DNA of 64,000 nt from Candidatus Pacebacteria bacterium UBA6180 (GTDB lineage Bacteria; Patescibacteriota; Microgenomatia; UBA1400; PJMF01), in assembly GCA_002422165.1 (NCBI GenBank), contig DITQ01000010.1:56595-120594 (forward strand), written 5' to 3'. The notes beneath the pieces were generated by a model. The model did not search any database. It was not told the origin of the DNA and saw nothing but the letters and a program-made list of their open reading frames with translations. This document shows, piece after piece, positions 5,801 to 50,301 of the stretch; position 1 is the stretch's first letter, and every line of letters begins with the position of its first letter. The translations under genes were made by a program, and so were the position numbers.

Positions 5801-6397
5801 ATGACCTTTCAGACAGACAGCTTCACAGGCGACGACGCCAAATACATCACGCCTAGCTGGGATCAGCTGGATAGCTTGACTTTGCACGTGGCCAAGCAAA
5901 TCAAAGCGGCCCAGTTGCATTTCGACCTAGTGGTCGCTTTAGCCAAGGGTGCCTGGCCGATGAGTCGTTCGCTGGTTGATTATTCAGGTATCAAAGAACT
6001 GGCTAGCTTGGGAGTCAAATTTTATAAGGGCATTAACAAACGCCTAGACAAGCCAGAAATTTATCAAGAATTGCCTACTTCGGTTCAGGGCAAAAGAGTA
6101 CTGGTCTTCGACGATGTCGCCGATAGCGGTGAATCACTGGCTTTTACCCTCGATTATTTGCGTCAAGCTGGAGCTAAGGACATCAAAACTGCCACTTTGT
6201 TTTTTAAACCTTGGTCGGTTTTGACCCCAGATTTTTATGGTGAGACAACTGAAGCCTGGATTATTTTTCCTTTCGAAAAGCGTGAAATGATCGAATTATT
6301 GACCAAAAACTGGCGAGAGCAGGGTAGAAGCAAAGAAGAAATTTTAGCCAGATATCAGCAGTTAGGTTTTATGGAGGTTTACGACAGTGTCTGTTGA
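5801..6397 (+). CDS. Phosphoribosyltransferase (purine/xanthine PRTase-like)
   Basis: The PRPP-binding motif VLVFDDVADSGESL is present. Length is 198 aa. Confidence 0.7.
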   Translation: MTFQTDSFTGDDAKYITPSWDQLDSLTLHVAKQIKAAQLHFDLVVALAKGAWPMSRSLVDYSGIKELASLGVKFYKGINKRLDKPEIYQELPTSVQGKRVLVFDDVADSGESLAFTLDYLRQAGAKDIKTATLFFKPWSVLTPDFYGETTEAWIIFPFEKREMIELLTKNWREQGRSKEEILARYQQLGFMEVYDSVC

Positions 6398-14952: not shown

Positions 14953-15513
14953 ATGTCTGGTCACAGTAAATGGAACAACATCAAAAATCGTAAGGGCGCC
15001 CAGGACAAGCTCAAAAGCAAAGTCTTTAGTCAGCTGTCTCGCCTGATTAGGGCGGCTGCTCGTCAAGGCAATTCTGGCGATCCCAAGAGCAACCCGAGCT
15101 TGCGTCTGATTCTCGATAAAGCACGCTTAGCCAACATGCCCAAGGATAAAGTTCAAAAAGCCATCGATGTCGGCTTGGGTAAAAATGACGGTAAACAGAT
15201 TCAAGAGATAGTTTATGAAGCTTTTGGTCCTGGTGGTACAGGAATGATGATCGTCGCTCTCGCTGACAACGTCAACCGCAGCAGCTCAGAAATTCGTTTC
15301 ATTCTAAGCAAATTTGGCGCCTCCCTCGGTTCTCCTGGTTCAGCCAAGTACATGTTTAGTCGCAATGACGAAGGCGAATTTGTTGCTACTATGAAACTTG
15401 AGTTGAGTGGGGAAGATCAGTCAAAAATGCTTGAATTAATGGACAGTTTGCGGGAGAACGAAGATGTGGAGGATGTTTTTGTTGCTTGCGACCTCCTCGA
15501 TTCGTTAGATTAA
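14953..15513 (+). CDS. YebC/PmpR-family transcriptional regulator (short form)
   Basis: The N-terminal MSGHSKWNNIKNRKGAQD is the YebC/TACO1 signature. At 186 aa it is shorter than typical. Confidence 0.7.
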   Translation: MSGHSKWNNIKNRKGAQDKLKSKVFSQLSRLIRAAARQGNSGDPKSNPSLRLILDKARLANMPKDKVQKAIDVGLGKNDGKQIQEIVYEAFGPGGTGMMIVALADNVNRSSSEIRFILSKFGASLGSPGSAKYMFSRNDEGEFVATMKLELSGEDQSKMLELMDSLRENEDVEDVFVACDLLDSLD

Positions 15514-15529: not shown

Positions 15530-16297
15530 ATGCGTCGTCGAGAAAAATTTGTCATTGTTTCTGTTTTGCTCAGCGCTGGACTTTTGGCTACCCAATATAT
15601 TCCACTTGATTGGCGCTATTTGAGTATTCTAGTCTTGTTTTTGCTATCATATTTGAGTTCAGTTTGGGCCTTGTCAGACGATTTGCAGGCTCACGAGTGG
15701 TTAACCATTGTTCCTTTTCCGGCTCTGTACGCGAGCGCAGTAGCCTTGTTTTATTTTTTATTACCAGAGATTTTTTGGTCGAGATTGATTGTCATTTTGG
15801 TTTTTGGTGTCGGTATGTATGGCTTGTTTTTGACTTCTAACATTTTTTCAGTTGCCAAAGGTCGCACGATTCAGTTACTTTATGCAGCTCATGCAGTTGG
15901 TTTGTTTTTTACCATGTTGACCTCGCTTTTGTTTAGCAATGTCATTTTTTCGCTGCGCCTGCCTTTTTACTACAATGCTTTGCTTCTTTTTGCCAGTCAT
16001 TTTCCACTGGTTCTGATGTCTCTCTGGTCAATTGAATTGCGCCAGAAAATTAGTCGCGAACTTACCCTTTATTCTCTGGTTTTTAGTTTAATTTTGGCTG
16101 AGTTGGGAATTTTATTTTCTTTCTTGCCTTTGCAAATTTGGAGTCAGGCTCTTTTTGTCATGTCTTTTTTGTATTTAGGTCTTTCTATCCTTCAAAATCT
16201 CTTCAAAGGTAGGTTATTTCGCAATACCATCAATGAATACAATTTAGTTGCTTTCTTAATGTTGTTTTTGTTTATCATTTTGTTTCCTTCTAAATAA
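15530..16297 (+). CDS. Polytopic membrane protein (hypothetical)
   Basis: The product is 255 aa with at least seven hydrophobic helices. Confidence 0.45.
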   Translation: MRRREKFVIVSVLLSAGLLATQYIPLDWRYLSILVLFLLSYLSSVWALSDDLQAHEWLTIVPFPALYASAVALFYFLLPEIFWSRLIVILVFGVGMYGLFLTSNIFSVAKGRTIQLLYAAHAVGLFFTMLTSLLFSNVIFSLRLPFYYNALLLFASHFPLVLMSLWSIELRQKISRELTLYSLVFSLILAELGILFSFLPLQIWSQALFVMSFLYLGLSILQNLFKGRLFRNTINEYNLVAFLMLFLFIILFPSK

Positions 16298-16326
16298 AAA
16301 AGATTGATACATCAATCTTTTTTATT
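16297..16326 (+). terminator. Rho-independent terminator
   Basis: The stem agattga(t) / (a)tcaatct with a 3-nt loop is flanked by an A-run and TTTTTT. Confidence 0.7.
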
Positions 16327-17362
16327 GATTATTCCTCAAGCAGGGTAGAGTGATTGGGGTTTTGCAGGCGTCAGTTAGACCTAATGAGAAGAGTTGGTTG
16401 GAAAATAATCAGATTTTCCGACGCCTTTTCGATTTAAAAAGGCTTAAAAAGCAAAAAGCAGTCGGAAATAAATTTTTTTTAAATAAATTAAACTAGGGAA
16501 GAGGTCTGGAAAATTTTGGCATACCCATGTAAACAGGGTAGAGTGATATAGTTTGATACAGTCGTGAAAATTGTGGAAAACTCAAAAGTTATAGGACTTT
16601 GTAGCCTGGAGTGACCTAGTTTGAGCTATAAAACTTAGATAACTTGCTGCAAAAGTATGCGGTAATAAATTCGTCTTGATTTCCCAGATCAGGGCGAATA
16701 AGTTAATCTCGATATCTGCCAGATGAGCTTGGGCCTCTATTCTGAATAGTTTAAGTGTTCAAAATATCCTGATAAGTCAATAAAAAACCCGAATAGACTT
16801 ATCCAGGGAGGGGTCAAAGGTAGGAGCTTATGTCTGAAGCAAGAAAGTCGCTAAGGGGTGCAGGCGCGGAGAGTGTAAAGCGCTCTTAAAAGAATAAGCA
16901 AGAAATTATTTTCTAACACTTCTGCCCCAGCAGTAGGGGGTCAGTTTTTTTGAAATTAGGCTAGATAGATTATGTCGCACAATATAACTTTTGCGACATA
17001 AACAACTAATTAAGCCGAGAGGGTTCTTTTTATTTGTTTACCTTTTGTTTTCATTTCTTCGCACCAACTCGATGTTTACAGCTGTTTTATGGCTAGTTCT
17101 CCTCTGGGACTGCTCGCCTTCGCTGTCAGATCGTAATTAGTCAGTTTGACTCCTAACTGCCTATCTAGATGATCTGCCCCAGATGTGCCCAGGCTAAGAA
17201 TCTCTGTCTCGTGGAGCAGCCATTAGACAAATAAACTGATATATCAAGGTATTTACCTCTAGTGAGCCGTTTAGCGGCCCAAAATCGGCTTTTTATGGCG
17301 GAGGCTTGCCTTGGTATCGGCTGAAATGAGTGAATCGCTCATGTTACAATCGTTTTTGGCAA

Positions 17363-17947
17363 ATGACAGAGCTTTTTCTAAGCAAACCAGCACTTCGTTA
17401 TAAAAACAGCTTCTTGGAAGCAGTGCGGGAGGTGCAGGCTGAGCGAGCCAGCAATCCTTTCAGCGCCACGATGGCGGAAAACCACTTAGACATCGACCAG
17501 CTACGAGACGACTTTCTTTTCGAAGGGTTTTTGGAAAAAATGGAGCGCGAGTCGCTAGCCACGACCACTGATGAAAATGGCTATGTGCCAAACACAACTT
17601 TGTGGTTGATTGGGCGAGCGGCTGACGACACTGAGGTTTTCATCGGCCGCGTCAACATTCGTCACTACCTAACTGAGAAATTACGCAATACTTTTGGACA
17701 TTCGGGGTTTTTAATTCGACCGACAGAACGTGATAAAGGCTACGGGCGATCGCTGCTTCAGTTAGCGTTGTTCAAAGCTAAAGAGATTGTTACTGATGCG
17801 GAAAAATTTGACCACAAAGTTCTAATCACTTGCAGAGCCAACAACGCCATTTCTCAAAAAATTATCATAGGCGCTGGCGGCATCTTTGAACGGAGCGTCA
17901 TTTTGCCAAGCGGCGAGAGCGAGCTGCTCCACTGGGTACCACTTTAA
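17363..17947 (+). CDS. GNAT-family N-acetyltransferase
   Basis: The Q/RxxGxG/A-like acetyl-CoA motif RDKGYGRSLL is present. The ORF track starts at 17330, and the first plausible ATG is at 17363 (MTELFL...). Confidence 0.55.
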   Translation: MTELFLSKPALRYKNSFLEAVREVQAERASNPFSATMAENHLDIDQLRDDFLFEGFLEKMERESLATTTDENGYVPNTTLWLIGRAADDTEVFIGRVNIRHYLTEKLRNTFGHSGFLIRPTERDKGYGRSLLQLALFKAKEIVTDAEKFDHKVLITCRANNAISQKIIIGAGGIFERSVILPSGESELLHWVPL

Positions 17948-18224: not shown

Positions 18225-19172
18225 ATGCAATCACCAAAACACAACAGAACTAACCCTGATCTCGCCTTGATCGACTTTTTGGAATCCCTTGAAGTCGAAA
18301 AAAACCTGAGCCGATTAACTATTCGTAACTACGGTCACTATTTGCGCCGTTTTAACGAGTGGTTTAAGGATCAGGGCTACAAAGATCTCAAAGAATTGGA
18401 CCGAGAAATTCTGCGCAAATACCGGATTTTTCTTGCTCGCTACAGTGACGAAATGTCAAGAACCCTATCAAAAAAGACACAAAGCTATCATGTGATCGCC
18501 TTGCGTTCTTGGTTTAAGTGGCTGACCAAAAATGACCAAGAAGTCATGCATCCGGAAAAAATTGACTTGCCTAAAGGTGAATCAACCCACATGCAGTTTG
18601 TCAACGTCGAAGAAATTGAGCGCCTGCTGTCGCAGCCAGAGCTTTCAAGTAAGGAAGGTCTTCGTGATAAGGCTATTTTGGAACTACTCTTCTCTACTGG
18701 TTTGCGGGTTAGCGAATTGGTGGGCCTCAACCGCGACCAGATTGACCTAGGCCGGCGCGAATTTGGTGTGATCGGCAAGGGTCGCCGGCCACGAGTAGTT
18801 TTTCTAAGCGAGCGAGCAGCTACCTGGCTGCAGCGCTATCTGGTTTCCAGAGAGGATAATTGGCGACCAATTTTCGTTCGTCACTCTGGTAAAAAACCTG
18901 ATCCTCTGATGGATGGCGATGAGATGCGCTTGACCACTCGCAGTATTCAGCGTCTAGTCGACCATTATGCTCGGCAGGCGCGCCTGACAGTCAAATTGAG
19001 TCCGCACGGCATCCGTCATAGTTTCGCCACGGATTTGCTAATCAATGGTGCAGGCTTGCGCGATGTCCAGGAGATGCTTGGGCACAAAAACATTGCCACG
19101 ACGCAGATTTACACCCATGTTACTCAGCCACAGCTTAAGAAGGTCTACGATGAAACCCACTCGAAGATGTAG
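18225..19172 (+). CDS. xerD: Tyrosine recombinase XerC/XerD family
   Basis: An N-terminal core-binding domain is present. The C-terminal HGIRHSFATDLL...LGHKNIATTQIYTHV carries the R-H-R-Y catalytic signature. Confidence 0.8.
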   Translation: MQSPKHNRTNPDLALIDFLESLEVEKNLSRLTIRNYGHYLRRFNEWFKDQGYKDLKELDREILRKYRIFLARYSDEMSRTLSKKTQSYHVIALRSWFKWLTKNDQEVMHPEKIDLPKGESTHMQFVNVEEIERLLSQPELSSKEGLRDKAILELLFSTGLRVSELVGLNRDQIDLGRREFGVIGKGRRPRVVFLSERAATWLQRYLVSREDNWRPIFVRHSGKKPDPLMDGDEMRLTTRSIQRLVDHYARQARLTVKLSPHGIRHSFATDLLINGAGLRDVQEMLGHKNIATTQIYTHVTQPQLKKVYDETHSKM

Positions 19173-19249: not shown

Positions 19250-19323
19250 GGGCCGGTAGCTCAGTTGGCTAGAGCGCTTCTATGGCATAGAAGAGGTCAG
19301 GGGTTCAAGTCCCCTTCGGTCCA
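19250..19323 (+). tRNA. tRNA-Ala (anticodon GGC)
   Basis: The acceptor stem gggccgg / tcggtcc includes a G3:U70 pair. The anticodon loop atGGCat reads GGC. A GGTTCAAGTCC T-arm is present. CCA is not encoded. Confidence 0.85.
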
Positions 19324-19326
19324 CAC

Positions 19327-20196
19327 ATGAATAGACCATTATATCCTGCTTTTTCGCTTCTTTTGGCTACTTTCCTCTACAGCTTCTTTGGTGTCTTGAC
19401 TAGGATAATGGGCTTTGATTTGCCGATTTATTTCGCCAGTTTTACAAGAGATCTGGCGGGAGCGCTGATTTTGCTGCTACCTCTGGTGCTACTGGGCAAA
19501 TTGCAAAAAGTTGCTAAACAAGATTGGCCTTGGCTGATTTTACGCTCGGCTGGCGGAGTTTTTGGCTTCCTTGGTTCTTATTATGCTATGTATAATTTGC
19601 CGATTGGCACGGCTTATTTCATTTTCTATGGTGGCTCGACGATTTTTGGTTTCCTATCTGGAGCTTGGCTATTCAAGGAAAAAATTAGCTTCATCGAAGG
19701 CTTGTCGCTTTTGGTTTCGCTGCTTGGCTTGATCATGATTTATTCCATCGGTGGAGTGGGCGTTGGTTTATTGCCTTACGTGATTTGGGCTTTTGTAGGC
19801 GGCATGGGGGCAGCGGTCTGGAACACTTTTTCCAAGAAAATCTCAGGGATTTACAGTGCTACTCAGCTCAATGGTTTGGATTTTGCGATTTTTACAGTTA
19901 TGATGCTTGGTTTATCGCTTTTGGCTGGTGAAACTTGGGTGGCGCCTGCATGGAATCTAATTTGGCTAGCTAACTTACTCTTCGTCATCATGTTTGTGGT
20001 GACTGGTCAGTTGATGATTTATGGTTTTAAGTACCTCGATGCGCAGAAAGGCAGTCTGATTATGCTGCTAGAGGTAGTTTTTGGCGCACTGATTGGTTGG
20101 CTGTTTTATCAGGAAGCGCTTGGTATAGGAGCTCTCCTTGGTGGCTTACTGATTTTGCTTGGGGCGGTATTGCCGCAGGTAAGCAAAAAAGCTTAA
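19327..20196 (+). CDS. EamA/DMT-family transporter
   Basis: The 289-aa product has ten predicted TM helices in two repeated halves. The start lies 4 nt after the tRNA, and an alternative ATG exists at 19405. Confidence 0.55.
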
Positions 20197-22934
20197 GCTT
20201 TATCCCCTTCACCCTCGTCCATGGTTAAGGCCACAGCGACAACCTGATCACCATCGCTCATTTTCATCAGGATCACGCCTTGTGTGGGACGAGTCAGGGT
20301 GGGAATGGAAGCTTTGCTGATCGGCATTTTGATAGCTTTGCCGGTTTTGGTGCTGATGACGACTTCTTTATTTGCGTCAGTGACCATTTTGGCAGAGGCG
20401 ACTTTGCCAGTGCGCTTGGTGATTTCAGAAACTTTGACTCCGAGGCCAGATCGTTTCTGAAGTGGGTAGTTCTCTAGAGTAGTGCGCTTGCCCATGCCGT
20501 TTTCAGTGATAATGAGCAAGCTGTTTTCTTTGAGAACTTCTTTTTTGTCCTCAAAAACCTCGACGCCGACAACAGAATCGCCGCTATGTAGGGTAATGCC
20601 TTTGACACCCTTGGTGTCGCGTTGGCTGGATTTAACCTCTTCTTCGCTGAAGCGAATTGATTTACCATCGTGAGTGATGAGCATGATGTGGTCGTGACCC
20701 GTGGTGATCTTGCCCCAGACGAGCTCATCACCGTCGTTGAGGATGATGGCTACGATGCCGCTTTGGCGAATATTGCTGAAGAGTTTGAGGGCAGTTTTCT
20801 TGACTAGACCATTTTTGGTGGCCAGGGTGACAAATTTATCTTTGTCAGCTTCTTGATCGACGACCAGTATGGAGAGAACTTTCTCTTCGCCCTTGAGATT
20901 GAGAATGTTGACGATGGCGGTGCCTTTGGCTTGGCGGCTGGCGTCAGGGATCTCGTAGGCCTTCATTTCGAAGACACGGCCCTGATTGGTGAAGAGGAAG
21001 AGGTTGTCATGAGTGTTGCAGGTGACGATACACTTGAGGACATCCTCAGCTTTCATGTTGAGGCCTTTACTGCCTTTACCGCCGCGAGACTGCGAGCGGA
21101 AGGCGTCTGGACTGAGGCGCTTGATGTAGCCACTTTCAGTCAGTGTGATAACCGTCGATTCATCGGCGATTAAGTCTTCTTCGTTGAATTCACCAATTTT
21201 GCCTTTGATGACTTTGGTGCGGCGCTCGTCACCGTAAAGCTCGATCATTTCCTTGGTTTCTTCAGCAATCTTGGCCAGAATTTTGGCAGGATCATTGAGC
21301 AAGTGGATCAAGATGCCAATGGCAGCCTGAATGGCGGCATATTCTTCTTCAATTTTCTGGCGCTCGAGAGCGGCCAGACGCTTGAGTTGCATTTCCAGGA
21401 TGGCGGATGCCTGCAGGTCACTGAGGCCAAATTTTTTCATCAGGGCTTCATGAGCGGTGGGCGTGTCTTTGGAGGAACGGATAGTTTGGATGACTTCGTC
21501 GAGATTATTGAGGGCGATAATCAGGCCTTCGAGGATGTGGGCGCGGTCGCGAGCTTCCTTGAGCTCGTTTTGGCTGCGGCGGACGACTACTAGTTGGCGG
21601 TGAATGATGTATTCGCGTAGTACCTGGCGCAAAGTCATCAGAGAAGGAGTGCCTTCGCTGTTGAGAGCGACCATATTCATCGAGAAGCTGCTTTGCAGCT
21701 CCGAGTATTTGAAGAGCTTGTTAAGGACGACGTTTGGGCGAGCGTCTTTTTTGAGCTCGACGGTGATTTCCATGCCCTTGCGGTCAGAGTCGTCGCGCAG
21801 GTTGCGGATGCCGACGATTTTTTTGTCGCGGACCAGGTCGGCGATCTTCATTAGCAAGCGAGCTTTGTTGACCTGATAAGGTAACTCGGTGATCGAAATC
21901 GAGAAAGAGCCTTTCTTGTCTTCCTCGATGCTGGCTTTGCCACGGATGACGATGCGACCCCGGCCAGTACGGTAGGCCTCAGAAATCTCCTTTTGGTCAT
22001 AGATGATGCCGGCGGTGGGGAAATCTGGACCCTTGATGTGCTCCATCAGTTCTTCGTGAGTAATGTCGCTTTCGAATTTACCAGTTAGAGCACTTGGTGC
22101 AGCAGCTAAAATAGCGTTAATACACTCCGAATCAGAACTGAGTTTCTCCTCACCAATTTCAATGGTGCTTTCAGTGGTAGCTTTGCCCTTGGCCAGCATG
22201 GCGACGATAGCGTTGCTGACCTCAGTTAAATTGTGAGGGGGGATTTTGGTGGCCATACCCACAGCAATACCTTCTGAGCCCATCAACAGGAAATTGGGAA
22301 TACGAGTTGGCATGACAGTGGGCTCTTTGGTGGAGCCATCGAAGTTGTCGACAAAGTCGACGGTACCTTTATTAATATCGGCCAAAAGTTCTTGGGCGAT
22401 TTTGGCGCTGCGAGCTTCGGTGTAACGCATAGCCGCTGGGCTGTCGCCGTCAATCGAACCAAAGTTACCCTGCCCATCAATTAGTGGGTAACGCATGCTA
22501 AAGTCCTGCGCTAAACGCACTAGGGCCATATAAACGGCACTGTCACCGTGAGGGTGATATCTACCCAGGACATCACCGACGATACGCGCAGATTTCTTGT
22601 AAGGCGTGTTGTAGTGAATGCCCGATTTGAACATGGAATAAAGGATGCGGCGGTGTACTGGCTTGAGACCATCACGGACGTCAGGCAGAGCGCGCGAGAC
22701 AATGACGCTCATCGCGTAATCGAGGTAGGATTTTTCCATCTCGTTGACGATGGAAGTGTGTTTGAGTTTGCCATAAGCACTGTCCTCGATGGTGCCGATT
22801 TTAGAGGCGAGCTCTTCTTCATTAATTTCTTCGATTTCGCTGGTAATTTCGTGTTTAGTGGTCTCGTCGGCAGAGTCAGTCTCTTCGAGATTTTCAACGC
22901 TGATGTTTAATTCGTCTGCCTGTGCTTTTGACAT
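20193..22934 (-). CDS. gyrA: DNA gyrase subunit A
   Basis: The N-terminal [28 protein letters not shown] includes the catalytic Tyr region. Length is 913 aa, with C-terminal beta-pinwheel repeats. Confidence 0.95.
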
Positions 22935-41502: not shown

Positions 41503-41964
41503 ATGTATTTTCTTGATGATGACGATCGAATCAAGGGTGAAGGGCGTCACCAGCGTCGTGCTTTCTTGATGCAGTTGCTTTTTGCTCACACTTTTGATGA
41601 AGTTGGAGATCAAGCTCTTAGTGAACTAGATGAGCAAGCTTTGCCAGAGGCAGAGAGTCAGCTTCTAGAGCAAATTTTGGCTGCTGCTCCAGACATTGAC
41701 ACTTTGATCGCTGCGCACGCGCCAGAACGCCCACTCTCAGAGATCAATCGGGTAGATTTATCGATTATGCGCTTGATTATTTTCGAGAGTCAGACCGAGA
41801 AAACCCCCAAGAAAGTTTTGGTCGACGAAGCCGTCGAGTTAGCTAAGGAATTTGGTAGTGATACTTCTGCCAAATTCGTCAATGGAGTTTTGGGCAAAAT
41901 TTTATTTACAGAGCTTGACCAGGCTGAGGTTAGCTCTTCAGACGAGAAAGAAAACCAATTATGA
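41503..41964 (+). CDS. nusB: Transcription antitermination factor NusB
   Basis: The C-terminal VDLSIMRLIIFE...KVLVDEAVELAKEFGSDTSAKFVNGVLGKI matches the NusB core. Confidence 0.7.
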   Translation: MYFLDDDDRIKGEGRHQRRAFLMQLLFAHTFDEVGDQALSELDEQALPEAESQLLEQILAAAPDIDTLIAAHAPERPLSEINRVDLSIMRLIIFESQTEKTPKKVLVDEAVELAKEFGSDTSAKFVNGVLGKILFTELDQAEVSSSDEKENQL

Positions 41965-42242
41965 GTTTCGCCAAAATTGACCCAGAAGTTTTTAATCGCC
42001 TTCGCCAAGTGTTGGTTGAGTTGACAGGTAATGACATCGAGGAAGTGGTGCCTGATTCTGATCTGGAAGAAGACCTTGGTCTCAATCTCGATATCGACAT
42101 GGCTAGAATCGTGTCCCGTCTTAACCAAGAATTTGACATCAATTTGCAAGAAAAATTAGTTTATCAAGAACTAACTGAGGAAACTGGTGCTAGTGTGGCA
42201 GAGTTAGCCAAATTAGTTTATGATGAATATGAATTAGGCTGA
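41961..42242 (+). CDS. Acyl-carrier-protein-like small acidic protein lacking the phosphopantetheine-attachment serine
   Basis: EEDLGLNLDIDMARIVSRLNQEF aligns with the ACP sequence [21 protein letters not shown], but the Asp-Ser-Leu serine is replaced. Its position immediately upstream of rnc matches the acpP-rnc arrangement. Confidence 0.45.
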   Translation: MSFAKIDPEVFNRLRQVLVELTGNDIEEVVPDSDLEEDLGLNLDIDMARIVSRLNQEFDINLQEKLVYQELTEETGASVAELAKLVYDEYELG

Positions 42243-42243
42243 T

Positions 42244-42909
42244 ATGACCCTGACTTTTCGCAACCCAGAACTCTTAGAGACTGCTCTTAGTCATCGCAGC
42301 TCGCTCAATGAAAAAAGCCAGTCAGGCACAACCTCGATGCAGTCCAATGAGCGCTTGGAATTTTTAGGTGATGCTGTCCTAGAGCTGGCAGCTACTCTTT
42401 ATCTTTACAATCACCAGCCTAACGAAAATGAAGGCAAGCTAACCGCTTATCGTAGTGCTCTGGTTCGCACTGAGACCTTGGCGGCTCTAGCTCGTGAGCT
42501 GGAGCTCAATAAGCAGATGTATCTGAGCAAAGGTGAGGAGCAAGGTGGTGGCCGCGACAACGACAGTTTGCTGGCTGACTTGATGGAGGCAGTCATAGGC
42601 GCTCTCTACCTCGATCAAGGCTTCGAAGCCGTCCAGGATTTTCTAGCCCAGCATTTGTTTCCCAAATTTGAAAATATTTTGCAAAATAAAAGTTACAAAG
42701 ATCAAAAAAGCTTGTTGCAAGAAGAAGTTCAAGCTCGCTCGCTTCCCACGCCAGTTTATCGTTTGGTCAAAGCTGTTGGCCCAGATCACGACAAAGAATT
42801 TACAATAGAAGTTCTGGTCAATGATCAAGTTTGGGGAGTCGGCACGGGTCACAGCAAGCAAATCGCTCAGCAGGCAGCAGCAGCTAAGGCATTGCAAAAG
42901 ATCGCTTGA
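42244..42909 (+). CDS. rnc: Ribonuclease III
   Basis: The RNase III signature ERLEFLGDAVLEL and a C-terminal dsRBD are present. Confidence 0.9.
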   Translation: MTLTFRNPELLETALSHRSSLNEKSQSGTTSMQSNERLEFLGDAVLELAATLYLYNHQPNENEGKLTAYRSALVRTETLAALARELELNKQMYLSKGEEQGGGRDNDSLLADLMEAVIGALYLDQGFEAVQDFLAQHLFPKFENILQNKSYKDQKSLLQEEVQARSLPTPVYRLVKAVGPDHDKEFTIEVLVNDQVWGVGTGHSKQIAQQAAAAKALQKIA

Positions 42910-42942
42910 GAAATTGGCGACTTCAAGGTAAAATTCATCTCT

Positions 42943-43353
42943 ATGCTAAAAATAAAACTTGCTAGATTCGGTAAAAAACACCAAGCCCACTATCGTATCG
43001 TGGTCAACGAAGCTCGTGACAAAAGAGATGGCAGTTACACTGCTCTACTCGGCCACTACAGCCCAGTTGTACCCAAGAAATTGGAAATCGACGTTGCCGC
43101 TTACGAAGCTTGGATAGTCAAGGGTGCTCAGCCAACTGAGACAGTCGCTGCTCTTTTCAGGCGTTTCAAGTCTGGCGATCCTTTCCCTGTCAAGAAGCCT
43201 GGTCTCTCCAAGAAAGCCAAAGCCAAGGCTGTAGCTGCTGCTAAGCAAGCTAGTGAGCCAGTTGTCGAGCCAGCCAAAGAAACTGTCGCAGAAGAAGCTG
43301 CTCCAATTGTCGAAACCGAAGTCGCCGAAGCTACTGAAAAAATTGCTGCTTAA
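42943..43353 (+). CDS. rpsP: 30S ribosomal protein S16 with Ala/Lys/Glu-rich C-terminal extension
   Basis: The N-terminal MLKIKLARFGKKHQAHYRIVV matches S16. The C-terminal ~55 aa are low complexity. Confidence 0.88.
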   Translation: MLKIKLARFGKKHQAHYRIVVNEARDKRDGSYTALLGHYSPVVPKKLEIDVAAYEAWIVKGAQPTETVAALFRRFKSGDPFPVKKPGLSKKAKAKAVAAAKQASEPVVEPAKETVAEEAAPIVETEVAEATEKIAA

Positions 43354-43365
43354 GTAAATTATTAT

Positions 43366-43623
43366 TTGCTTGTAAATCAAAATAACACTATGAAAAGCTT
43401 ACTTGAATTCATCTTACTTCGCATGGTCGAACACCCAGAAGATCTAAAGATTGATGAGGTTCAAGAAATGGGTCTGACTATTTACAAACTTAAGCTTCAT
43501 CCTGATGATGTTGGTCGCGTGATTGGTCGCTCTGGCAACGCCATTAAAGCTATTCGCAAACTCGCCAGTGTGCGTGCGGTAAAAGAACGCTTGCGCGTGA
43601 GAGTGGTTTTGCAGGAAGACTAA
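43366..43623 (+). CDS. KH-domain RNA-binding protein (YlqC/UPF0109 family)
   Basis: The VGRVIGRSGNAIKAIR GXXG KH motif is present. Synteny after rpsP is conserved. An alternative start exists at 43390. Confidence 0.75.
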   Translation: MLVNQNNTMKSLLEFILLRMVEHPEDLKIDEVQEMGLTIYKLKLHPDDVGRVIGRSGNAIKAIRKLASVRAVKERLRVRVVLQED

Positions 43624-44465
43624 AGCTCTTCTTCAGTTTCATTTATTCTACTCAGTTCATCAGCTGGTTCTACAGATGCATTTAGGCTTTGTTCTAACTC
43701 TTCAACGCTCAGGTTTCCAATTCCAAATAAATTGCCGCGGTCACCGCGGATAACCTGGTCTTGAAGCTGCAGATCTCCCGGGATTAGTTGGTTGATGTTA
43801 TCGAGAATTTTGCGCTCTGCCAAGGTAATGTCAGGTAAGGGATTGGTGATAGTGGTGCGAATGGATTGGGTGAAATAAAAACTGCGCAAGACCAGATCAG
43901 CCTGAGCAATAGCGTTGCGATCTTGCTCAATATTGCGATTAATTGAGATGCTGGTAATAGTGCTGATTGGAGTAACTTGTTCTATTAGACTCATAAACTC
44001 CTGAATGCGCCAAAGTGGACCACTGACGCTAAAATCTAAATCGAGAAAATCATAGCTTGTAGTGTTGCTGCTGCGGCGTACTTGAGTGGAATCAGTGGCA
44101 ATTTCACCAGGATTGAGGCTGAAGTTTTTGATCACCACCTCTGTGGTGTTGGCAACTTTGTTAAGATTATTGAGAATTTCTAAAAGTGGTTTGTGAGAAG
44201 GCAAAACTTTATTGATATCAGAAGCCTGGTTGAAATTGGGGTCGATGGCTAGCTGTTTGAGTTGTTCTGCCTTATTATAAAATTTGGCTAGCTCTAGTTC
44301 ACGCTCATTAAGTTTATTTAAGTCAGTCAAAATTGGAGTAATTTGTTGGATCACGCCAATTAATAAAACTAGTCCAGCGAGGATGAAAAAAAGTACTCCT
44401 AAGACTAATTCCTTACGAGTGTTCCAAAATAAGCGCCAGTTTACTTCGGTTTTATTTTCAATCAT
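43620..44465 (-). CDS. PilO-like type IV pilus assembly protein (bitopic)
   Basis: An N-terminal TM helix and a coiled-coil precede the periplasmic domain. It sits downstream of pilM and pilN on the same strand with overlapping ends. Confidence 0.45.
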   Translation of the reverse strand: MIENKTEVNWRLFWNTRKELVLGVLFFILAGLVLLIGVIQQITPILTDLNKLNERELELAKFYNKAEQLKQLAIDPNFNQASDINKVLPSHKPLLEILNNLNKVANTTEVVIKNFSLNPGEIATDSTQVRRSSNTTSYDFLDLDFSVSGPLWRIQEFMSLIEQVTPISTITSISINRNIEQDRNAIAQADLVLRSFYFTQSIRTTITNPLPDITLAERKILDNINQLIPGDLQLQDQVIRGDRGNLFGIGNLSVEELEQSLNASVEPADELSRINETEEEL

Positions 44466-45018
44466 TTTTTTTGAGTTCTAATTTGAGAGTCAGTTTATAG
44501 CTACCATTGTCTGCTCTAGACAAAGTATTTTTTTCGATGTCATGATATTGCCCTCGTAATTTTTCGCTATCTAGAATTTGGTTGACTTCTCTGAATTTGA
44601 AGATATTTTCGCTGCTTAATTGCAACACCAACCCACCCTGCTCTTCCTGGTAGCTCATGCCGACAATTTCAGCTTTTTCAGCAAAAGTTTCAGAGAAGTA
44701 GTTCATTGCAGCCTGCTTATCACTACGTTTTTGATAAATTTCACTGATGGCTCGAATTTTATTGACAAAAATTAAATAATTAAGCTCGACATTTTCTTGG
44801 GCGAGAATGCTTGCTCGATATTCCTTGATTTTGTTTTCGGTAGTATTAATGCGCAAATTATTAAACAATTTAAAACCAAAAACCCCAATCATGAGTAGGC
44901 AAGCTACTCCCAATACATAGCTGCTTAAGCGAAAAATGCGAACATCTTGCTCTTTTTGCTTGCTTTTTTGTTTAACACGGTTGGCTAAAAAATTGATGTT
45001 GATCATGAGTTTTGCCAT
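44458..45018 (-). CDS. pilN: PilN-like type IV pilus assembly protein
   Basis: The N-terminal ININFLANR resembles the PilN INLLP motif. A single TM helix is present. Length is 186 aa. Confidence 0.55.
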   Translation of the reverse strand: MAKLMININFLANRVKQKSKQKEQDVRIFRLSSYVLGVACLLMIGVFGFKLFNNLRINTTENKIKEYRASILAQENVELNYLIFVNKIRAISEIYQKRSDKQAAMNYFSETFAEKAEIVGMSYQEEQGGLVLQLSSENIFKFREVNQILDSEKLRGQYHDIEKNTLSRADNGSYKLTLKLELKKND

Positions 45019-45022
45019 TAAG

Positions 45023-46030
45023 CTAGAGCTGTCTAGTGATTAGGCCCATGCAAACGCTATAGCTAGCTTGATTGAGTTCTGGAACTTGGCCTTTGGCTTT
45101 GGCGAAAGGAGCTGCTATCAACACTTCCACTCCCAAATTTTGACTGATTTTTTCGACCAAACCCTTTAGTTGAGCTGGCCCACCAGCTAAAGCAATGCGC
45201 TTAATTTTTTGTTCAGGGTGATTTTGGTTAAAAAAGCGCATCGTTTTTTGCAAATCAATGATTAGGTTGTTAATAATTGGGTCAATGACTTGGTATAGCT
45301 TGCCTTCCATTTGATTGGGATCGAGACCATAGTTAATTTTGTATTCTTCTGCCTGTTTAAGGTCGAGATTGAAACTTTGGCTAATAGCAGCGTCAATTAG
45401 TGAGCTGCCAGTTTTAGAATTAAAAACGAACTCGAACATATTATTGGCAACCACAGCGATGTCGTTGCTACTGGAGCCCATTTGGACAATGATGGTCTCA
45501 GGATCATTGGCTTCTATATCTAGCGAGCGAATGACAGAAAAAATTTGGGTTTCAAGAAGGGTTGCTTCGATGCCAATGTTGAGAAAAACATTATTGATTT
45601 TTTCAACCAGGGATTTACGCGATCCAACTAGCAAAACTTTCATTGTTGCATTAACTGCTTTTTTATTGGGTTTTTCTAGAACTTGATACTGCAAGATAAG
45701 GTCATTTTTGGGGATGGGGATGGACTGTTCAGCTTGCCAGCCAATCGCTGAAGCCAGCTCAGCATCACTAAGGACAGGCACATCAATCACTTTACTAGTG
45801 ACTAGATATTCAGGCAAACTAAGTCTGACGTCGCTTTGATCGAGCTTGTAGTCGTGGAAAAGGTTGCTAATTAGCTCAGCGAACTGCAGTGCTTCTTGGT
45901 CGCTTTTGGGAGCGACTAATCCTAATTTATTTTTGATTTCTACAGCTTTATTAATCGCTTGACTTCTGCTGTCTTTAGCAACAACGATCTTAATCGTGTG
46001 GGTGCCGATGTCTAGGGCAGTTATTGACAT
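45023..46030 (-). CDS. pilM: Type IV pilus assembly protein PilM (actin-like ATPase fold)
   Basis: The N-terminal ITALDIGTHTIKIVV matches the PilM/FtsA-like phosphate-1 motif. Length is 335 aa. Confidence 0.7.
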   Translation of the reverse strand: MSITALDIGTHTIKIVVAKDSRSQAINKAVEIKNKLGLVAPKSDQEALQFAELISNLFHDYKLDQSDVRLSLPEYLVTSKVIDVPVLSDAELASAIGWQAEQSIPIPKNDLILQYQVLEKPNKKAVNATMKVLLVGSRKSLVEKINNVFLNIGIEATLLETQIFSVIRSLDIEANDPETIIVQMGSSSNDIAVVANNMFEFVFNSKTGSSLIDAAISQSFNLDLKQAEEYKINYGLDPNQMEGKLYQVIDPIINNLIIDLQKTMRFFNQNHPEQKIKRIALAGGPAQLKGLVEKISQNLGVEVLIAAPFAKAKGQVPELNQASYSVCMGLITRQL

Positions 46031-46040
46031 ATTTATAGTT

Positions 46041-46838
46041 TTATTTTGCTAAACTTCCTCCGCTAACTAGGGCAAAATCCATAAAAGCCGGGGCGGCAGG
46101 AATTGACCTTTTAACCTCGATGGCTTTGGAGCTAGAACCATCTGGCATCTGAGCCATCGACAAAATCGTGTATTGGGCGCTGGCTAGTAGGTTGCTGCTG
46201 CCACTCAAGTGAAGATCGGTGCCCTGGTCAAGTGGTAGGATGCGTAAAAAAGCTCCTTGGTTATTACTGCCGTCAATGCCGATGGTGTATTGAAATTGGT
46301 AAAGATCTTCTGTGGAGGCTGTTGCGCTAAGTAGGTTCTGGTCACTTTGGCTAGCACAGTTGCCAACCATATAATAATTAACATCCGTCGCGCCACCACT
46401 AAGGAAGTAATGACCAATTAGAAGGTTGGCCGCTCCCTGATCACAAGCACTTTGAGACCAGTGTAGAGTTAGATTGCCAGTTTGTGTGTCGCTAATGCGC
46501 ACTTCCAGCGCTGTTTTTTCTGGCACAAAACCAGTGAATTCATCAGCAGAGCTAATACTGACCTGGTTAAAGTTGGCATCTTCAAAGGAAAATTCAGCAG
46601 GCAATTGGATATTTTGATCGCTTTCGAATTGAAAAATGTTGCCGAGAGCTTGTTGGATTCCTGATTCGGCAGTACTAAAAACGCGAGCAGTGTCCTCTTG
46701 TGCGATATTACTTTGACTTTCTCTGATGGTGCGGTTGGCGATGGAAAGGCCAATCACCAAGATGATGGCTGAAATTAGTAGGACAATTACCCCAACTTGC
46801 CCATCTTGACTGGAACTAAAAGCAATGTGTTTCTGCAT
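46041..46838 (-). CDS. Membrane-anchored hypothetical protein at the head of the pilMNO cluster
   Basis: An N-terminal hydrophobic helix is VGVIVLLISAIILVIGLSIA. Length is 265 aa. It is pilus-associated by context only. Confidence 0.4.
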   Translation of the reverse strand: MQKHIAFSSSQDGQVGVIVLLISAIILVIGLSIANRTIRESQSNIAQEDTARVFSTAESGIQQALGNIFQFESDQNIQLPAEFSFEDANFNQVSISSADEFTGFVPEKTALEVRISDTQTGNLTLHWSQSACDQGAANLLIGHYFLSGGATDVNYYMVGNCASQSDQNLLSATASTEDLYQFQYTIGIDGSNNQGAFLRILPLDQGTDLHLSGSSNLLASAQYTILSMAQMPDGSSSKAIEVKRSIPAAPAFMDFALVSGGSLAK

Positions 46839-46881
46839 GCTAAATCATGATAGCAGAATTGCTTGTTTGTAAGCAAGTATA

Positions 46882-48936
46882 CTAATTAGTGGCAGCTTCA
46901 AGCGTGGCGTTCTGGATTTTTTCCAAGTATGGTCGCAAAAAAGATTGATAGTTTGGTTCTTGTTGCAGCAGAGTTGCAGCTTGGTGGATAATTTCAGTAT
47001 TGGTCCAAGAGGCAAAGCGTAAATTGTGCAGACCACTTTGGTTGTAGCCAAGTAAATTTCCTGCCCCACGATTTTCTAGATCAAGTTGGGCCAGTTTAAG
47101 CCCATTTTTTTCTTGGCAGAAATTTTGCAAACGCTTTTGATTTTCTGGATTTTTATCGATGTCAGTCGAGCTAAAAAGTAAGCAGTAACTAGTTTGGCCA
47201 CGCCGACCAACGCGACCTCGCAACTGGTGTAAACTCGATAAGCCGAAGCGTTCGGCCGATTGAATCAGCATAATGTCAGCATTTGGCAAATCAACTCCAA
47301 CTTCGATCATTGGAGTACTAATAAGGATTTGGATTTCCTGACTGTAAACTTGCTCTATAATGGCTGTTTGCTTTTTTTTGCTCAGCTTCGAATGTAAGAC
47401 ATCAATTTTGAATTGTTGGTTAGTTGGAATATTGAGGCGTTTATAAATTTTTTGAAGTTTTGTCTCAAGTAAGGATGAGGCTTCTTTGACGGCGGCGACA
47501 TTTTCTGTCGCTGCTGCTGTAGATGGATTGATAAAAGGACAAACAATTAAAGCCTGCTTAGTTCGTTGTTGATGGACTTTAGTTGAATTAGCTTTCGTGG
47601 AGTTGAGCAACTCCTTGACTAGCCATTCAATGGCTTTATCCTCTTTGTGTTTAGGTACCAGCCAAGTGGTGGCCATTTGTCGCTGGTTAGGCATTTCATC
47701 TAAGTGACTGAGGTCCAAATGACTGAAAATACTGAGCATCAAGCTTCTGGGAATGGGTGTTGCAGTCATGCTGAGCAGGTGTGTTCTAGTCTCCGCTTGA
47801 TCTAGATGTTCTTCTAGTTGGCGGTGTTTAACTCCAAAGCGTTGTTGTTCATCGTAAATCACCAAGCCTGGTTGAATCTGTTCTAGTTTGCCAAGCAGGC
47901 TATGAGTACCGACATAAAAAGTGGCCCGATCGCTTCGTGTGAATTTCTCACCAGCTTGGACGAGAGTGAGCTTGATGTCAGGTAGTAGGCTTTGTAATTT
48001 GTCGAAGTGTTGTTTGGCCAGAATTTTGGTGGGGGCAAGCAAGCAGACATTTTGACCTGCCTGAACGAGCAAGCTGGCTGGCAAAGCAGCGACAATAGTT
48101 TTGCCGCTGCCGACGTCGCCAACTAATAGTCGGTTCATTGGGGATTTTCGTTGTAGATCACTGATGATTTCCTGAACTGCTTTTTTCTGAGCAGTAGTGA
48201 GCGTAAAAGGTAGTTGTGGCAAATTGTGTTTATCAGCTTCCTGAAGTTGAAATTTGGCTCGTTTGCTTTGGTGAAGTTGTTTGTTGGCAGCGGATTTTTG
48301 CATCAGGAAAATGATTTCTTCTCTAGCTAAGCGTTCGCGTGCTTCGACAACTTCTTGAGTCGTATTTGGGAAATGCAGATTTTTGAAGAGTTGCTCGAGT
48401 TCGCCAGCCTGGTGCAGTTTACCGATGACTTCCGCGAGCAGGCGGCGGAGATTGCCTTGTTTGAGGTCGCCGAGTTTAGGGTAAATGGGCACCAGGCGGC
48501 CAGTGTGGATATTTTGCTCAGTAATTTTTTCGACCGTGGCCTGCATTAGTTGGCCGTCTTTGATTTTACCTGAGAAAAAATATTCTTGACCTACGAGAAG
48601 TTTATTTTTGAGAAATTTGTTATTAAACCACAGGCAGTTGATTTGATCGCTCGTGTCGACGATGGTGGCCCGACCAATCAATAAACGGCCTTTGCGGTAT
48701 TCTTGCCATTTAAGTAGTTTAGCCTGGCAGGTGATGAAGTTTTTCTCTCCTATTTCGCCGCTAGCGGCAGCTTGTTTGAGCTCGGCGATGTTTTTGGTCA
48801 AGGATCTATCCTCGTAGCGCAAGGGCAAAAATAATAAAAAATCGAGCAATTGCTCGATTTGGTATTCTGCAAGGGCAAAATTTAGATTGTCACCGATGCC
48901 TTTGATCGTCAGAACAGGATCTGCTAGTTGGTACAT
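46882..48936 (-). CDS. recG: ATP-dependent DNA helicase RecG
   Basis: Walker A is DVGSGKT. A DEQQRFG-like DEAH motif is present. An N-terminal wedge domain and TRG-like C-terminus complete the 684-aa protein. Confidence 0.88.
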   Translation of the reverse strand: MYQLADPVLTIKGIGDNLNFALAEYQIEQLLDFLLFLPLRYEDRSLTKNIAELKQAAASGEIGEKNFITCQAKLLKWQEYRKGRLLIGRATIVDTSDQINCLWFNNKFLKNKLLVGQEYFFSGKIKDGQLMQATVEKITEQNIHTGRLVPIYPKLGDLKQGNLRRLLAEVIGKLHQAGELEQLFKNLHFPNTTQEVVEARERLAREEIIFLMQKSAANKQLHQSKRAKFQLQEADKHNLPQLPFTLTTAQKKAVQEIISDLQRKSPMNRLLVGDVGSGKTIVAALPASLLVQAGQNVCLLAPTKILAKQHFDKLQSLLPDIKLTLVQAGEKFTRSDRATFYVGTHSLLGKLEQIQPGLVIYDEQQRFGVKHRQLEEHLDQAETRTHLLSMTATPIPRSLMLSIFSHLDLSHLDEMPNQRQMATTWLVPKHKEDKAIEWLVKELLNSTKANSTKVHQQRTKQALIVCPFINPSTAAATENVAAVKEASSLLETKLQKIYKRLNIPTNQQFKIDVLHSKLSKKKQTAIIEQVYSQEIQILISTPMIEVGVDLPNADIMLIQSAERFGLSSLHQLRGRVGRRGQTSYCLLFSSTDIDKNPENQKRLQNFCQEKNGLKLAQLDLENRGAGNLLGYNQSGLHNLRFASWTNTEIIHQAATLLQQEPNYQSFLRPYLEKIQNATLEAATN

Positions 48937-48949
48937 AACTAATTTAATT

Positions 48950-49059
48950 TAATAAGAGAAAAATAACAGTACAGCGCTGGCGGCGCTGCTCAAGATCAGA
49001 AAAGCAATTGCCGCGATTGCAAATCCTTTAATGAGAATGTCTTTTTGTTTTTTAGTCAT
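48950..49059 (-). CDS. Possible 36-aa small membrane protein overlapping the tyrS stop
   Basis: Manual translation gives MTKKQKDILIKGFAIAAIAFLILSSAASAVLLFFSY. It is below the ORF-track cutoff and speculative. Confidence 0.2.
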
Positions 49060-50245
49060 TTTTATGAGTAATTCTATACCAATCGCGTTTGCCCAACTTC
49101 ACTTGACTGTCCTCCGGCAAATCTAGCAACTGCTGGCGAGTGGTGATTTTTTCTAAGTTAGGTAGCAGTTTGACGGCGCCTTGCTCGAGGCGACGATTGA
49201 TTTCACTAGAACTAAGTGGTGGTTCTGCGGTGATCGTTTTGTCACTAATAATCAGGGTGCCGAACTCTGATGAGTCTGGAGCGGCATCACCCTGTACAGT
49301 ATCAGTAAAAAACTGCGCGGCTTCTACGGCAGCTACTTCATCATGTAGGTCTCTGGTTATAGTTAGGGCGAGCTTTTTCTTGAACTGCATGGGGTTTTGG
49401 CCAGCTCGCATAGCTCGCTCCATCTCTTCAATCTCAGTGAGCGAGATATCAGTTAGCAAGGTGAAATATTTAATAATTAGTTCATCTGCGACTCGCATTA
49501 GCTTGCCGTACATGTCGCGCGGCGCTTCAGTCAAGGCGACGTAGTTATTAAAAGACTTGCTCATCTTGCGCCCATCAGTGCCTTCGATGAGAGGGGTGCT
49601 AAGCACCCATTTCTCGTGCTGATTGTATTGCTGCTGGAGGTGGCGACCCATCAGCATGTTGAAAGTCTGGTCAGTGCCGCCAATTTCAAGATCGACGTCC
49701 ATAGCTACTGAATCATAACCCTGTAAAAGTGGGTAGATAATTTCGTGGCCATGAATCGGTAGTTTTTTAGCGAGGCGCTGCTCAAACATGTCGCGCTCGA
49801 GTAATTGCTGGACGGTAGTTTTAGCCATCAGTTTGACCATGTCGGCGTAAGTAAGCTTGTCTAGCCAGTCGCCGTTGTGGCGAATTTCGATCAAGTCGAA
49901 GTCAAGAATCTTACTCGCCTGCTTCTTCCAATCTTGAAAATTGGTTTCGATGGTGGCTTCATCCAACATCGGTCGACTCTCATCACGCCCGGTAGGATCG
50001 CCAATTTTGACCGTGCCGTTGCCGACTAGCAATATGACTTGGTGACCCAACTCAGCGAATTGCTGGAGTTTGCGTAGGGCTACGGCGTGTCCGAGGTGCA
50101 AAAAGGCACCTGTGGGGTCAATTCCTAGGAAGAGGCGAATTTGTCGTTCCGCCATGAGCGCCGCCAGAGTTTCTTTTTTAGGCAGAATTTCACTAACTCC
50201 TCTTTCGAGAACTGAAGAAATTGTTACTGAATCGGTATTTGGCAT
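49052..50245 (-). CDS. tyrS: Tyrosine--tRNA ligase
   Basis: The HIGH-class motif GIDPTGAFLHLGH and KMSKS are present. A C-terminal S4-like domain is present. Confidence 0.9.
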   Translation of the reverse strand: MPNTDSVTISSVLERGVSEILPKKETLAALMAERQIRLFLGIDPTGAFLHLGHAVALRKLQQFAELGHQVILLVGNGTVKIGDPTGRDESRPMLDEATIETNFQDWKKQASKILDFDLIEIRHNGDWLDKLTYADMVKLMAKTTVQQLLERDMFEQRLAKKLPIHGHEIIYPLLQGYDSVAMDVDLEIGGTDQTFNMLMGRHLQQQYNQHEKWVLSTPLIEGTDGRKMSKSFNNYVALTEAPRDMYGKLMRVADELIIKYFTLLTDISLTEIEEMERAMRAGQNPMQFKKKLALTITRDLHDEVAAVEAAQFFTDTVQGDAAPDSSEFGTLIISDKTITAEPPLSSSEINRRLEQGAVKLLPNLEKITTRQQLLDLPEDSQVKLGKRDWYRITHKND

Positions 50246-50301
50246 AAGGTGTAAATTCGCCTTATTCTAGCATTAACTCCAATATTTGGTAAAATGATTA
50301 T

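Follow-up and report, generated by a model that had tools for sequence, protein, structure and literature searches.

A deeply conserved non-coding locus beside a Xer recombinase gene in Pacebacteria-type bacteria, tentatively read as a DNA-level recombination locus

The DNA analysed here, referred to as the window, is a stretch of 64,000 nucleotides from Candidatus Pacebacteria bacterium UBA6180, and this study deals with its largest internal gap between open reading frames (ORFs), which holds a conserved non-coding element close to the gene of a Xer-family tyrosine recombinase. With a probability of roughly 40%, we read the gap as a DNA-level recombination locus of this recombinase; a non-coding RNA (ncRNA) on the + strand is ranked second and the other explanations are minor. 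The gap extends from the stop codon of a DUF5656 gene (16297) to the ATG of a GNAT-like gene (17363) and covers positions 16298-17362 (1065 nt), or 16298-17329 (1032 nt) if the longer, GTG-started GNAT-like ORF is counted. It contains no ORF of at least 60 codons in any frame, and the next largest internal ORF-free stretch of the window measures 403 nt. An earlier note, made from the sequence alone, had described about 1 kb without such an ORF as the largest gap of the window, and the gap is indeed real and the largest internal one.

On the left, the gap is preceded by a YebC gene (14953-15513, + strand) and by the gene of a DUF5656-family membrane protein (15530-16297, + strand; weak match to Pfam PF18900), the left neighbour of the element, for which 694 homologues were found, all from Patescibacteria/Pacebacteria-type sources (metagenome bins). 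On the right follow the GNAT-like gene (17363-17947, + strand; Pfam), the gene of the Xer-family tyrosine recombinase (18225-19172, + strand; Pfam Phage_integrase and a SAM-like N-terminal domain) and, directly downstream of the latter, tRNA-Ala(GGC) (19250-19324, + strand), then EamA (19327-20196, + strand) and gyrA (20193-22934, - strand). The GNAT gene, recombinase and tRNA-Ala that had been named downstream of the gap are all there, whereas the designation of the recombinase as XerD is not specific: the protein of 315 aa scores equally as XerC and XerD in NCBIfam (250 and 249 bits, XerA 208 bits, all under the cut-offs) and comes nearest to the cut-off on the XerA model (208 vs 220 bits). 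Judged by these model scores, it is a generic Xer. The GNAT-like gene is a variable insert between element and xer and lies outside the element; it is clade-specific, being present in the window, in loci L002 and L016-L022 and in a few metagenome loci, while most other loci lack it. In an Rfam scan of 13 relatives, 11 likewise have a tRNA downstream of the element.

For the comparison with relatives, 80 loci were taken from one-genome-per-species contigs via the DUF5656 protein. Searched with the gap in blastn, essentially all 80 loci contain its blocks with order and strand unchanged, and nhmmer detected the element wherever more than about 600 nt of downstream sequence were available. The 65 genome loci that carry it are all those with enough flanking sequence, and it is kept even where an extra gene separates it from DUF5656 (L024, L026, L029, L048, L058, L067). 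In most relatives, DUF5656 is followed by 1.0-2.6 kb that contain no ORF of at least 80 aa, and next there is usually a Xer gene of about 311 aa. A 24-nt exact pattern from the central hairpin, with which metagenome loci were retrieved and viral contigs scanned, matched once in each of at least 120 further metagenome stretches and had no match among the viral contigs; the comparison of the window with phage DNA likewise gave no match. The order YebC, DUF5656, element, Xer is constant, as are the strands, wherever the genes are visible, including the metagenome loci listed. DUF5656 lies upstream of the element in 132 of the 132 loci where it is visible, and this synteny is maintained down to about 30% DUF5656 identity. 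One of the loci, L009 (CP011212.1), is titled ‘candidate division TM6 bacterium’, a label that looks wrong, as its DUF5656 gene is 78% identical to that of the window and its element belongs to the near clade.

The gap is a single-copy non-coding locus of about 0.8-0.9 kb that is conserved across Pacebacteria-type bacteria of the candidate phyla radiation (CPR; Patescibacteria), and the aligned sequences indicate that it is a functional, deeply conserved locus and not junk. The comparison with the same intergenic region in related genomes, which the earlier note had proposed, thus yielded conserved blocks in fixed order, recovered by both blastn and nhmmer and amounting to more than chance. 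The idea of a scar left by an integration or excision event is contradicted by the constant syntenic position in about 185 loci across deep divergence; the suspected link with the recombinase deserves attention all the same, a resident recombination site being more likely than a scar. The element is undescribed in Rfam and in the searchable literature: Rfam 15 holds no matching family, full-text searches returned no description of it or of a dif site in Patescibacteria, and literature searches on CPR ncRNAs and DUF5656 returned nothing on the element.

Known RNAs were sought in the window and in 13 relatives. The transfer-messenger RNA (tmRNA), RNase P, signal recognition particle (SRP) and 6S RNAs, which had been considered plausible occupants, gave no Rfam 15 match at gathering thresholds, where tRNAs were the only matches; within the gap, matches at E<=10 were noise only. 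ARAGORN found no tmRNA, so that neither of these checks yields a known RNA in the gap. The covariance models of OLE, GOLLD and ROOL (Rfam 15) gave no match in the window or the 13 relatives either. By eye, TGTGGAAAACUC and AAAAAACCCGAAU loosely resemble CR-I and CR-V of RNase P, and this candidate was dropped as a P4 helix is impossible.

Protein coding was considered as well. In 12 pairs of close relatives, the substitutions in the element are spread evenly over the three phases (e.g. 28:29:40), whereas the DUF5656 control shows a strong phase bias (e.g. 69:21:1 or 2:71:12). Insertions and deletions are frequent and not multiples of three. It is hence hardly likely that the locus encodes one or more small proteins of less than 60 aa or a decayed gene. 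In many loci, the T-rich stretch to the right of the central palindrome does contain open frames of 40-80 codons that would encode hydrophobic peptides and follow a GAGAGG-like motif, but these frames differ in frame, length and sequence among relatives and no common frame was found. The decayed pseudogene of the earlier note is rejected, there being neither codon periodicity nor a conserved small ORF.

The most conserved part of the locus is a central imperfect palindrome of 28 bp (16972-16999; ATGTCGCACAA-TATAAC-TTTTGCGACAT), here named D, with 20 invariant columns in 65 loci. It coincides with the hairpin tatgtcgca...tgcgacata that had been noticed before and is confirmed. Its arms extend to 16969-17003; as an RNA, it would form a hairpin with arms at 16970-16982 and 16989-17001 and a 12-nt loop. 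A kissing interaction between this loop and the block TTATAGGAC was rejected, as the loop has an A/U variant without a matching change in that block. As DNA, D is readable as an 11-6-11 site with 11-bp inverted arms, of which 10 of 11 positions are symmetric, and an asymmetric 6-bp centre. The dif sites have an 11-6-11 layout, and linkage between site and recombinase gene is a possible hallmark of the single-recombinase systems XerS/difSL and XerH/difH (PMC5357621). D falls within the core layout of dif (28-31 bp; arms of about 11 bp; centre of 6-8, up to 11, bp), and the gene of a Xer-family protein, the candidate cognate recombinase, is located 1.2 kb downstream in the window; in 133 of 133 loci, xer follows D on the + strand.

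To the left of D, the locus begins with a terminator-like hairpin (16293-16326, + strand) that is based on the palindrome GATTGATACATCAATC between A and T runs and marks the left boundary of the gap. Its two 16-nt arms (16293-16308 and 16311-16326) show 100% complementarity, and near relatives keep the hairpin with compensating changes, e.g. AAGATTGAT..ATCAATCTT vs AGGATTGAT..ATCAATCCT. The clean terminator reported at the start of the gap is a perfect 16-nt-arm hairpin conserved in near relatives. The sequence TTGATNNATCAA is found only once in the 64-kb window, as is the palindrome GATTGATRYATCAATC (16301-16318), which forms the stem of the DUF5656 terminator; in distant clades, the terminator palindrome lies on the opposite side of the element, 60-100 nt to the right of the block E2 described below. 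GATTGATRYATCAATC seems to mark a boundary of the locus and not to be a generic terminator.

Three top-strand copies of the G-rich motif GGGNAGAG follow in the gap (16343, 16496 and 16536), 430-630 bp left of the core. The first (16338-16354, + strand, match at 16343; AAGCAGGGTAGAGTGAT) belongs to the direct-repeat family D3, and its repeat with 16531-16547 (17 nt, 94% identical) is the direct repeat reported at about 16336 and 16538, to which the copy at 16496 is added. The second copy (16493-16505, + strand, match at 16496; CTAGGGAAGAGGT) reads ACAGGGAAGAGC in near relatives. Between the two lies a lineage-specific spacer (16355-16490) that does not align among near relatives. It contains the inverted repeat I1 (16415-16468) and the pair ggcgtc...gacgcc, of which both halves are present as had been noted (16367-16372 and 16420-16425), although this stretch cannot be aligned among relatives. 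In other clades, the element begins 57-113 nt past the DUF5656 stop.

The third copy (16536-16543) is fused to the block m1, TGATATAGTTTGATA (16544-16558), in a near-invariant unit (16531-16558, + strand). Among 185 loci, the m1 core GATATAGTTTGAT has the + orientation in 133 and the - orientation in 2. In locus L049 (about 5881-5930), m1 is followed at once by its perfect reverse complement (ATGATATAGTTTGAT gcagt ATATCAAACTATATCAT), a sequence arrangement which suggests that m1 may normally be paired with something. Next come CGTGAAAA and the block m2, TGTGGAAAAC (16572-16581; whole segment 16563-16583, + strand), with the consensus TGTGGAWAAC, and the block m3, TTATAGGAC (16589-16597), which is on the + strand here and in 100 of 185 loci. 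In 24 loci m3 occurs as its reverse complement TCCTATAA, and in all four such loci examined it lies upstream of m1. In one clade (L053, L060, L062, L081 and about 20 metagenome loci), TTATAGGAC is missing downstream of m2, and a perfect -10-like hexamer, (G)TCCTATAA(T), stands about 20 nt before m1 instead.

The m2 block matches the reverse complement of the DnaA-box consensus (TGTGNAWAA) and is the sole DnaA-box-like site in the gap; 159 of the 185 loci carry TGTGGAWAA on the + strand and 4 on the - strand. Together with the AT-rich and T-rich stretches of the element and its location 4-14% from the record ends in five near-complete genomes, this could point to a replication-related DNA locus, either oriC or a DnaA-titrating or -reactivating site of the datA/DARS kind. 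This is very improbable, as each element has one box only, the window contains no dnaA signature, the gap coincides with no minimum or other extremum of the cumulative GC skew, and the flanking genes traverse the site in one direction (+ strand). Moreover, the G-rich motifs converge on the site, whereas divergence would be expected at an origin. Both oriC and a canonical terminus are ruled out by GC skew, gene orientation and DnaA-box counts. A parS site was rejected too, as the copies of GTGAAAA/GTGGAAAA are direct repeats and not the parS palindrome.

Further to the right, a second m1-like copy, GAGTGACCTAGTTTGA, and the block AAACTTAG..TGCAAAAGTATGC..AATAAAT (16609-16671, + strand; repeat family D4) are conserved in near and mid clades, and a small TTGCA/TGCAA hairpin is predicted there. 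The small conserved hairpin CTCTATTCTGAATAG (16735-16749, + strand) is a stem predicted by RNAalifold with wobble-type one-sided changes, and a local hairpin is also found in L053. It is followed by the block m6, AAAAAACCCGAAT (16782-16794), with GATAAGTCAAT upstream and GGGAGGGG downstream (16771-16813, + strand). Of 185 loci, 134 carry the m6 core AACCCGAA on the + strand and 6 on the - strand; m1, m2 and m6 are nearly exclusively + strand. In the near clade, an AACCC/GGGTT pairing is predicted at m6, where it is invariant, and a consensus scan scored the m6 region as a terminator-like site of the - strand. Several short motifs of the element are repeated 2-4 times, and CCAGGC/GCCTGG pairs are about 10x enriched within it. 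In the window, the octamer AGCCTGGT occurs 8 times within 41918-53364 against 1.6 expected, with seven + strand copies from 43196 to 53357, apparently in ORFs of both orientations. Over the whole window, AGCCTGG has 13 + strand and 4 - strand occurrences, and the word with its complement is about tenfold enriched in the element of relatives. One possibility is that this enrichment reflects a strand-polar motif.

A variable stretch of about 130 nt separates m6 from a terminator-like hairpin and T run, CTTCTGCCCCAGCAGTAGGGGGTCAGTTTTTTT (16919-16950, + strand), 20-50 nt upstream of D. Most lineages have a hairpin of variable sequence at this position, and 13% of loci satisfy strict terminator rules. 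To the right of D lies a T-rich, poorly conserved stretch (17004-17229, + strand; AT skew -0.146 over 16950-17249), which opens with the purine-rich GAGAGGG. Then follow an imperfect TTGATATATCAA palindrome (17236-17248) and GGTATTTACCTCTAG (17236-17262 in all, + strand), both conserved in near and mid clades; in distant clades the TTGATATATCAA palindrome flanks E2. The block E2, GAGCCGTTTAGCGGCCCAAAATCGGCTTTTT (17264-17294, + strand), is a weak + strand terminator-like hairpin and forms the right boundary of the element. Its 18-nt core GCCCAAAATCGGCTTTTT (17277-17294) is on the + strand in the clade of the window and its sister clade; most other clades have it as the reverse complement AAAAAGCCGWTTTTGRGC at the same distance from D (about 260-300 nt to the right; blastn, nhmmer), and on this sequence comparison the small E2 module appears to have been inverted during evolution.

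Given these features, the gap could be a composite regulatory region, made up of the 3' end and terminator of DUF5656, promoters, operator palindromes (TTGATAYATCAA and D) and a long leader of xer or of GNAT and xer, in which the leader would act by termination and antitermination and the palindromes would serve a DNA-binding regulator. The palindromes at both boundaries are typical of dimeric regulators, the CUCUC strand of the hairpin and T run upstream of D is complementary to GGGNAGAG, so that alternative pairings are possible, and one clade has the perfect -10-like CCTATAAT about 20 nt upstream of m1. We consider this composite improbable, because the conservation of the blocks is far above that usual for promoter and operator sites, the element is never lost although differing genes are inserted on either side of it in different clades, and a terminator-like hairpin lies between the element and the downstream gene in the window.

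The evidence extends into the flanking genes when the G-rich motif is considered, which resembles the FtsK-orienting polar sequence (KOPS) GGGNAGGG and in relatives points towards the core from both sides. The degenerate motif GGGNAGRG was counted in about 160 non-redundant loci, outside the element and within 4 kb of D. On the left (-4000 to -800), 64 matches are on the top and 6 on the bottom strand; on the right (+1100 to +4000), 10 are on the top and 102 on the bottom strand. Both xer, on the right, and yebC, on the left, are + strand genes, and the bias is opposite in them (6 top and 47 bottom in xer, 22 top and 2 bottom in yebC), which means that the polarity tracks the side of D and not the coding strand.

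On this basis, D, being near-invariant (16972-16999), would be the Xer core site, with two 11-bp arms around a 6-bp centre and linked to the xer gene as difSL is to xerS and difH to xerH; that Xer binds and recombines there is what we infer from its layout and neighbourhood. The G-rich GGGNAGAG motifs may steer a translocase such as FtsK, or another DNA-tracking protein, to D, and the remaining conserved blocks are putative binding sites for accessory proteins. The inversion of E2 and TTATAGGAC between clades is easier to reconcile with DNA sites than with RNA, and four of the five helices tested show no covariation above column shuffles, which was also counted for a DNA-level locus. We do not file the site as a canonical dif, because its location was tested and lies neither at the terminus nor at a GC-skew switch.

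Several observations weigh against this reading. Only 8 pairs of the 11-6-11 layout are perfect, to which 2 of 3 inner A:T matches are added. The first 60 codons of xer contain 46 of its 47 bottom-strand GGGNAGRG matches. The window itself shows little sustained polarity, with 2 top and 0 bottom matches left of D outside the gap (and 3 top inside it) and 1 top and 5 bottom matches on the right, all five of the latter apparently in - strand ORFs or intergenic. This clustering in xer and the few matches in the window mean that the polarity may come from local clusters rather than from a genome-wide skew. An unbiased search for polar 8-mers was dominated by conserved words of the flanking genes and was set aside, since it is not independent evidence. 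The GC skew is positive throughout the 64 kb without a sign change at the site, and the cumulative skew rises on both sides; across D in 50 loci, it falls from +0.094 to +0.047 (38/50, p = 1.6e-5) and stays positive. The locus lies 4-14% from the record ends in the five near-complete genomes. A simple core site also leaves unaccounted for the conserved DNA around it, about 450 bp on the left and 300 bp on the right (about 800 bp). Finally, the variation in the D stem is U.G far more often than C.A (19 cells vs at most 2), which fits a + strand RNA hairpin, and the + strand of the window folds better than its shuffles (z = -2.7), which the - strand does not.

These last two points belong to the second-ranked explanation, a new large structured ncRNA of about 750-800 nt on the + strand, which would run from about 16490-16531 to the E2 hairpin at 17294. 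In that case, the blocks would serve as functional motifs, either single-stranded or engaged in tertiary contacts, D would be a long hairpin whose 12-nt loop is conserved, and the variable stretches would be lineage-specific hairpins. Acting in trans, the RNA would scaffold a conserved protein partner, as OLE RNA does with the neighbouring membrane protein OapA. This possibility is tentative and rather unlikely. A more specific form of it is a little more doubtful still, namely an unrecognised class of large ncRNAs restricted to Pacebacteria/Microgenomates-type CPR that serves as partner or mimic for the recombinase or the DUF5656 protein; if true, such a class has been retained in genomes of about 1 Mb, with a most conserved hairpin of the size of a Xer core. 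The ‘one or two structured ncRNAs’ of the earlier note are a live, unproven rival, with covariation beyond shuffles in the D hairpin alone.

In its favour are the roughly 800 nt conserved without coding signal and the near-invariant blocks with fixed order and strand between spacers of variable length; although the spacing varies from 18 to 63 nt, 83% of cells show in-register pairing between m1 and the 5' side of m2. The D stem shows pairing and covariation above all 500 shuffles, with wobble-type variation (outer pair 31-56: UA 39, UG 19, CG 5, other 2; 65 loci). The D flanks pair slightly better with their own partner than with those of other loci (p = 0.002); the + strand gives the better pairing in 105 loci, the - strand in 50. 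The + strand of the window has a minimum free energy of -232 kcal/mol (z = -2.7; - strand z = 0.05), the window carries a terminator-like hairpin at both ends, and one-sided changes in predicted stems of the near clade are mostly G.U-compatible on the + strand. On the other hand, there is no Rfam match, RNAalifold predicts few pairs with 0-1 compensatory changes, and the helices P-E1, E2, outer P0 and m1:m2 (67-83% in register) equal column shuffles. These four helices pair far better in register than with the partner columns slid, which is conserved complementarity and not covariation. A mutual-information scan of 133 non-redundant sequences revealed no strong helices, and in a base-pair probability map by segment for 44 loci, only the D hairpin is consistent. 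Twelve homologues have z values of about -2 to -3 on both strands, and G.U vs A.C mismatches in short stems follow the base-composition expectation. Some clades carry E2 and m3 in inverted orientation, no more than 10-13% of loci have a strict terminator where one is expected (weak enrichment), and an RNA leaves the GGGNAGRG polarity that extends into the flanking genes unexplained. A pairing of GGGTAGAG with CTCTATTCTG was rejected, as the latter folds into its own local hairpin.

A basic cellular function is implied by the retention of about 0.8 kb of non-coding DNA in the tiny, dense CPR genomes, and by the near-invariance of the blocks where the neighbouring protein is at about 30% identity. 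If the Xer recombination locus is the true explanation, D would be the first dif-type site for these organisms, accompanied by a candidate FtsK-orienting motif, and a site untied to the GC-skew terminus, bearing on chromosome segregation. If the RNA is, it would be a rare new class of large ncRNA. Either way, the 24-nt core is a sharp single-copy marker with which the region can be found and oriented in metagenome bins.

Among known systems, the element resembles OLE RNA, GOLLD and ROOL in its 600-800 nt with many near-invariant nucleotides, and OLE RNA also in adjoining a gene for a polytopic membrane protein of unknown function; in the case of OLE this neighbour is oapA. These RNAs have many covarying helices and Rfam models, unlike the element, which has no Rfam match and covariation in the D hairpin alone. 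Another comparison is with the dif activity zone and the polar sequences that orient FtsK and SpoIIIE. The G-rich 8-mers are comparable to KOPS and to the SpoIIIE recognition sequence (SRS), with GGGNAGGG in E. coli and GAGAAGGG in B. subtilis vs GGGNAGAG here, and with more than 90% on one strand on each side in convergent orientation. Unlike in KOPS and SRS, the polarity in the window is found within about 4 kb only, partly in tight clusters and without a flip of the GC skew.

The plasmid sites cer and psi likewise consist of a core Xer site and a few hundred bp of flanking DNA for accessory proteins, which are putative here, and they function independently of FtsK and of chromosomal position (PMC5357621). 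Their accessory DNA measures about 180 bp, lies on one side and is bound by PepA, ArgR and ArcA, whereas conserved DNA is found on both sides here. The archaeal XerA/dif system is similar in having a single recombinase and a 28-bp 11-6-11 site, and XerA works without FtsK (PMC5357621). The archaeal dif is located in the terminus region while the location of xerA is highly variable, and its archaeal short polarised sequences (ASPS) are 4-mers, compared with the G-rich 8-mers here (PMC5357621). Compared with difSL and difH, D differs in lying 0.5-2.2 kb from the gene and not directly adjacent to it, in being embedded in about 800 bp of conserved non-coding DNA and in not being at a GC-skew switch, and the window Xer of 315 aa has the length of XerC, XerD and XerA, against roughly 355 aa for XerS and XerH. 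The locus shares with xerS/difSL of streptococci and lactococci and with xerH/difH of Helicobacter and Campylobacter the linkage of one Xer gene to a single-copy imperfect palindrome of about 28-31 bp (PMC5357621), and its inner arm ends are A-rich and T-rich in the same way, CACAA..TTTTG in D and GAAAA..TTTTC in difSL and difH (PMC5357621).

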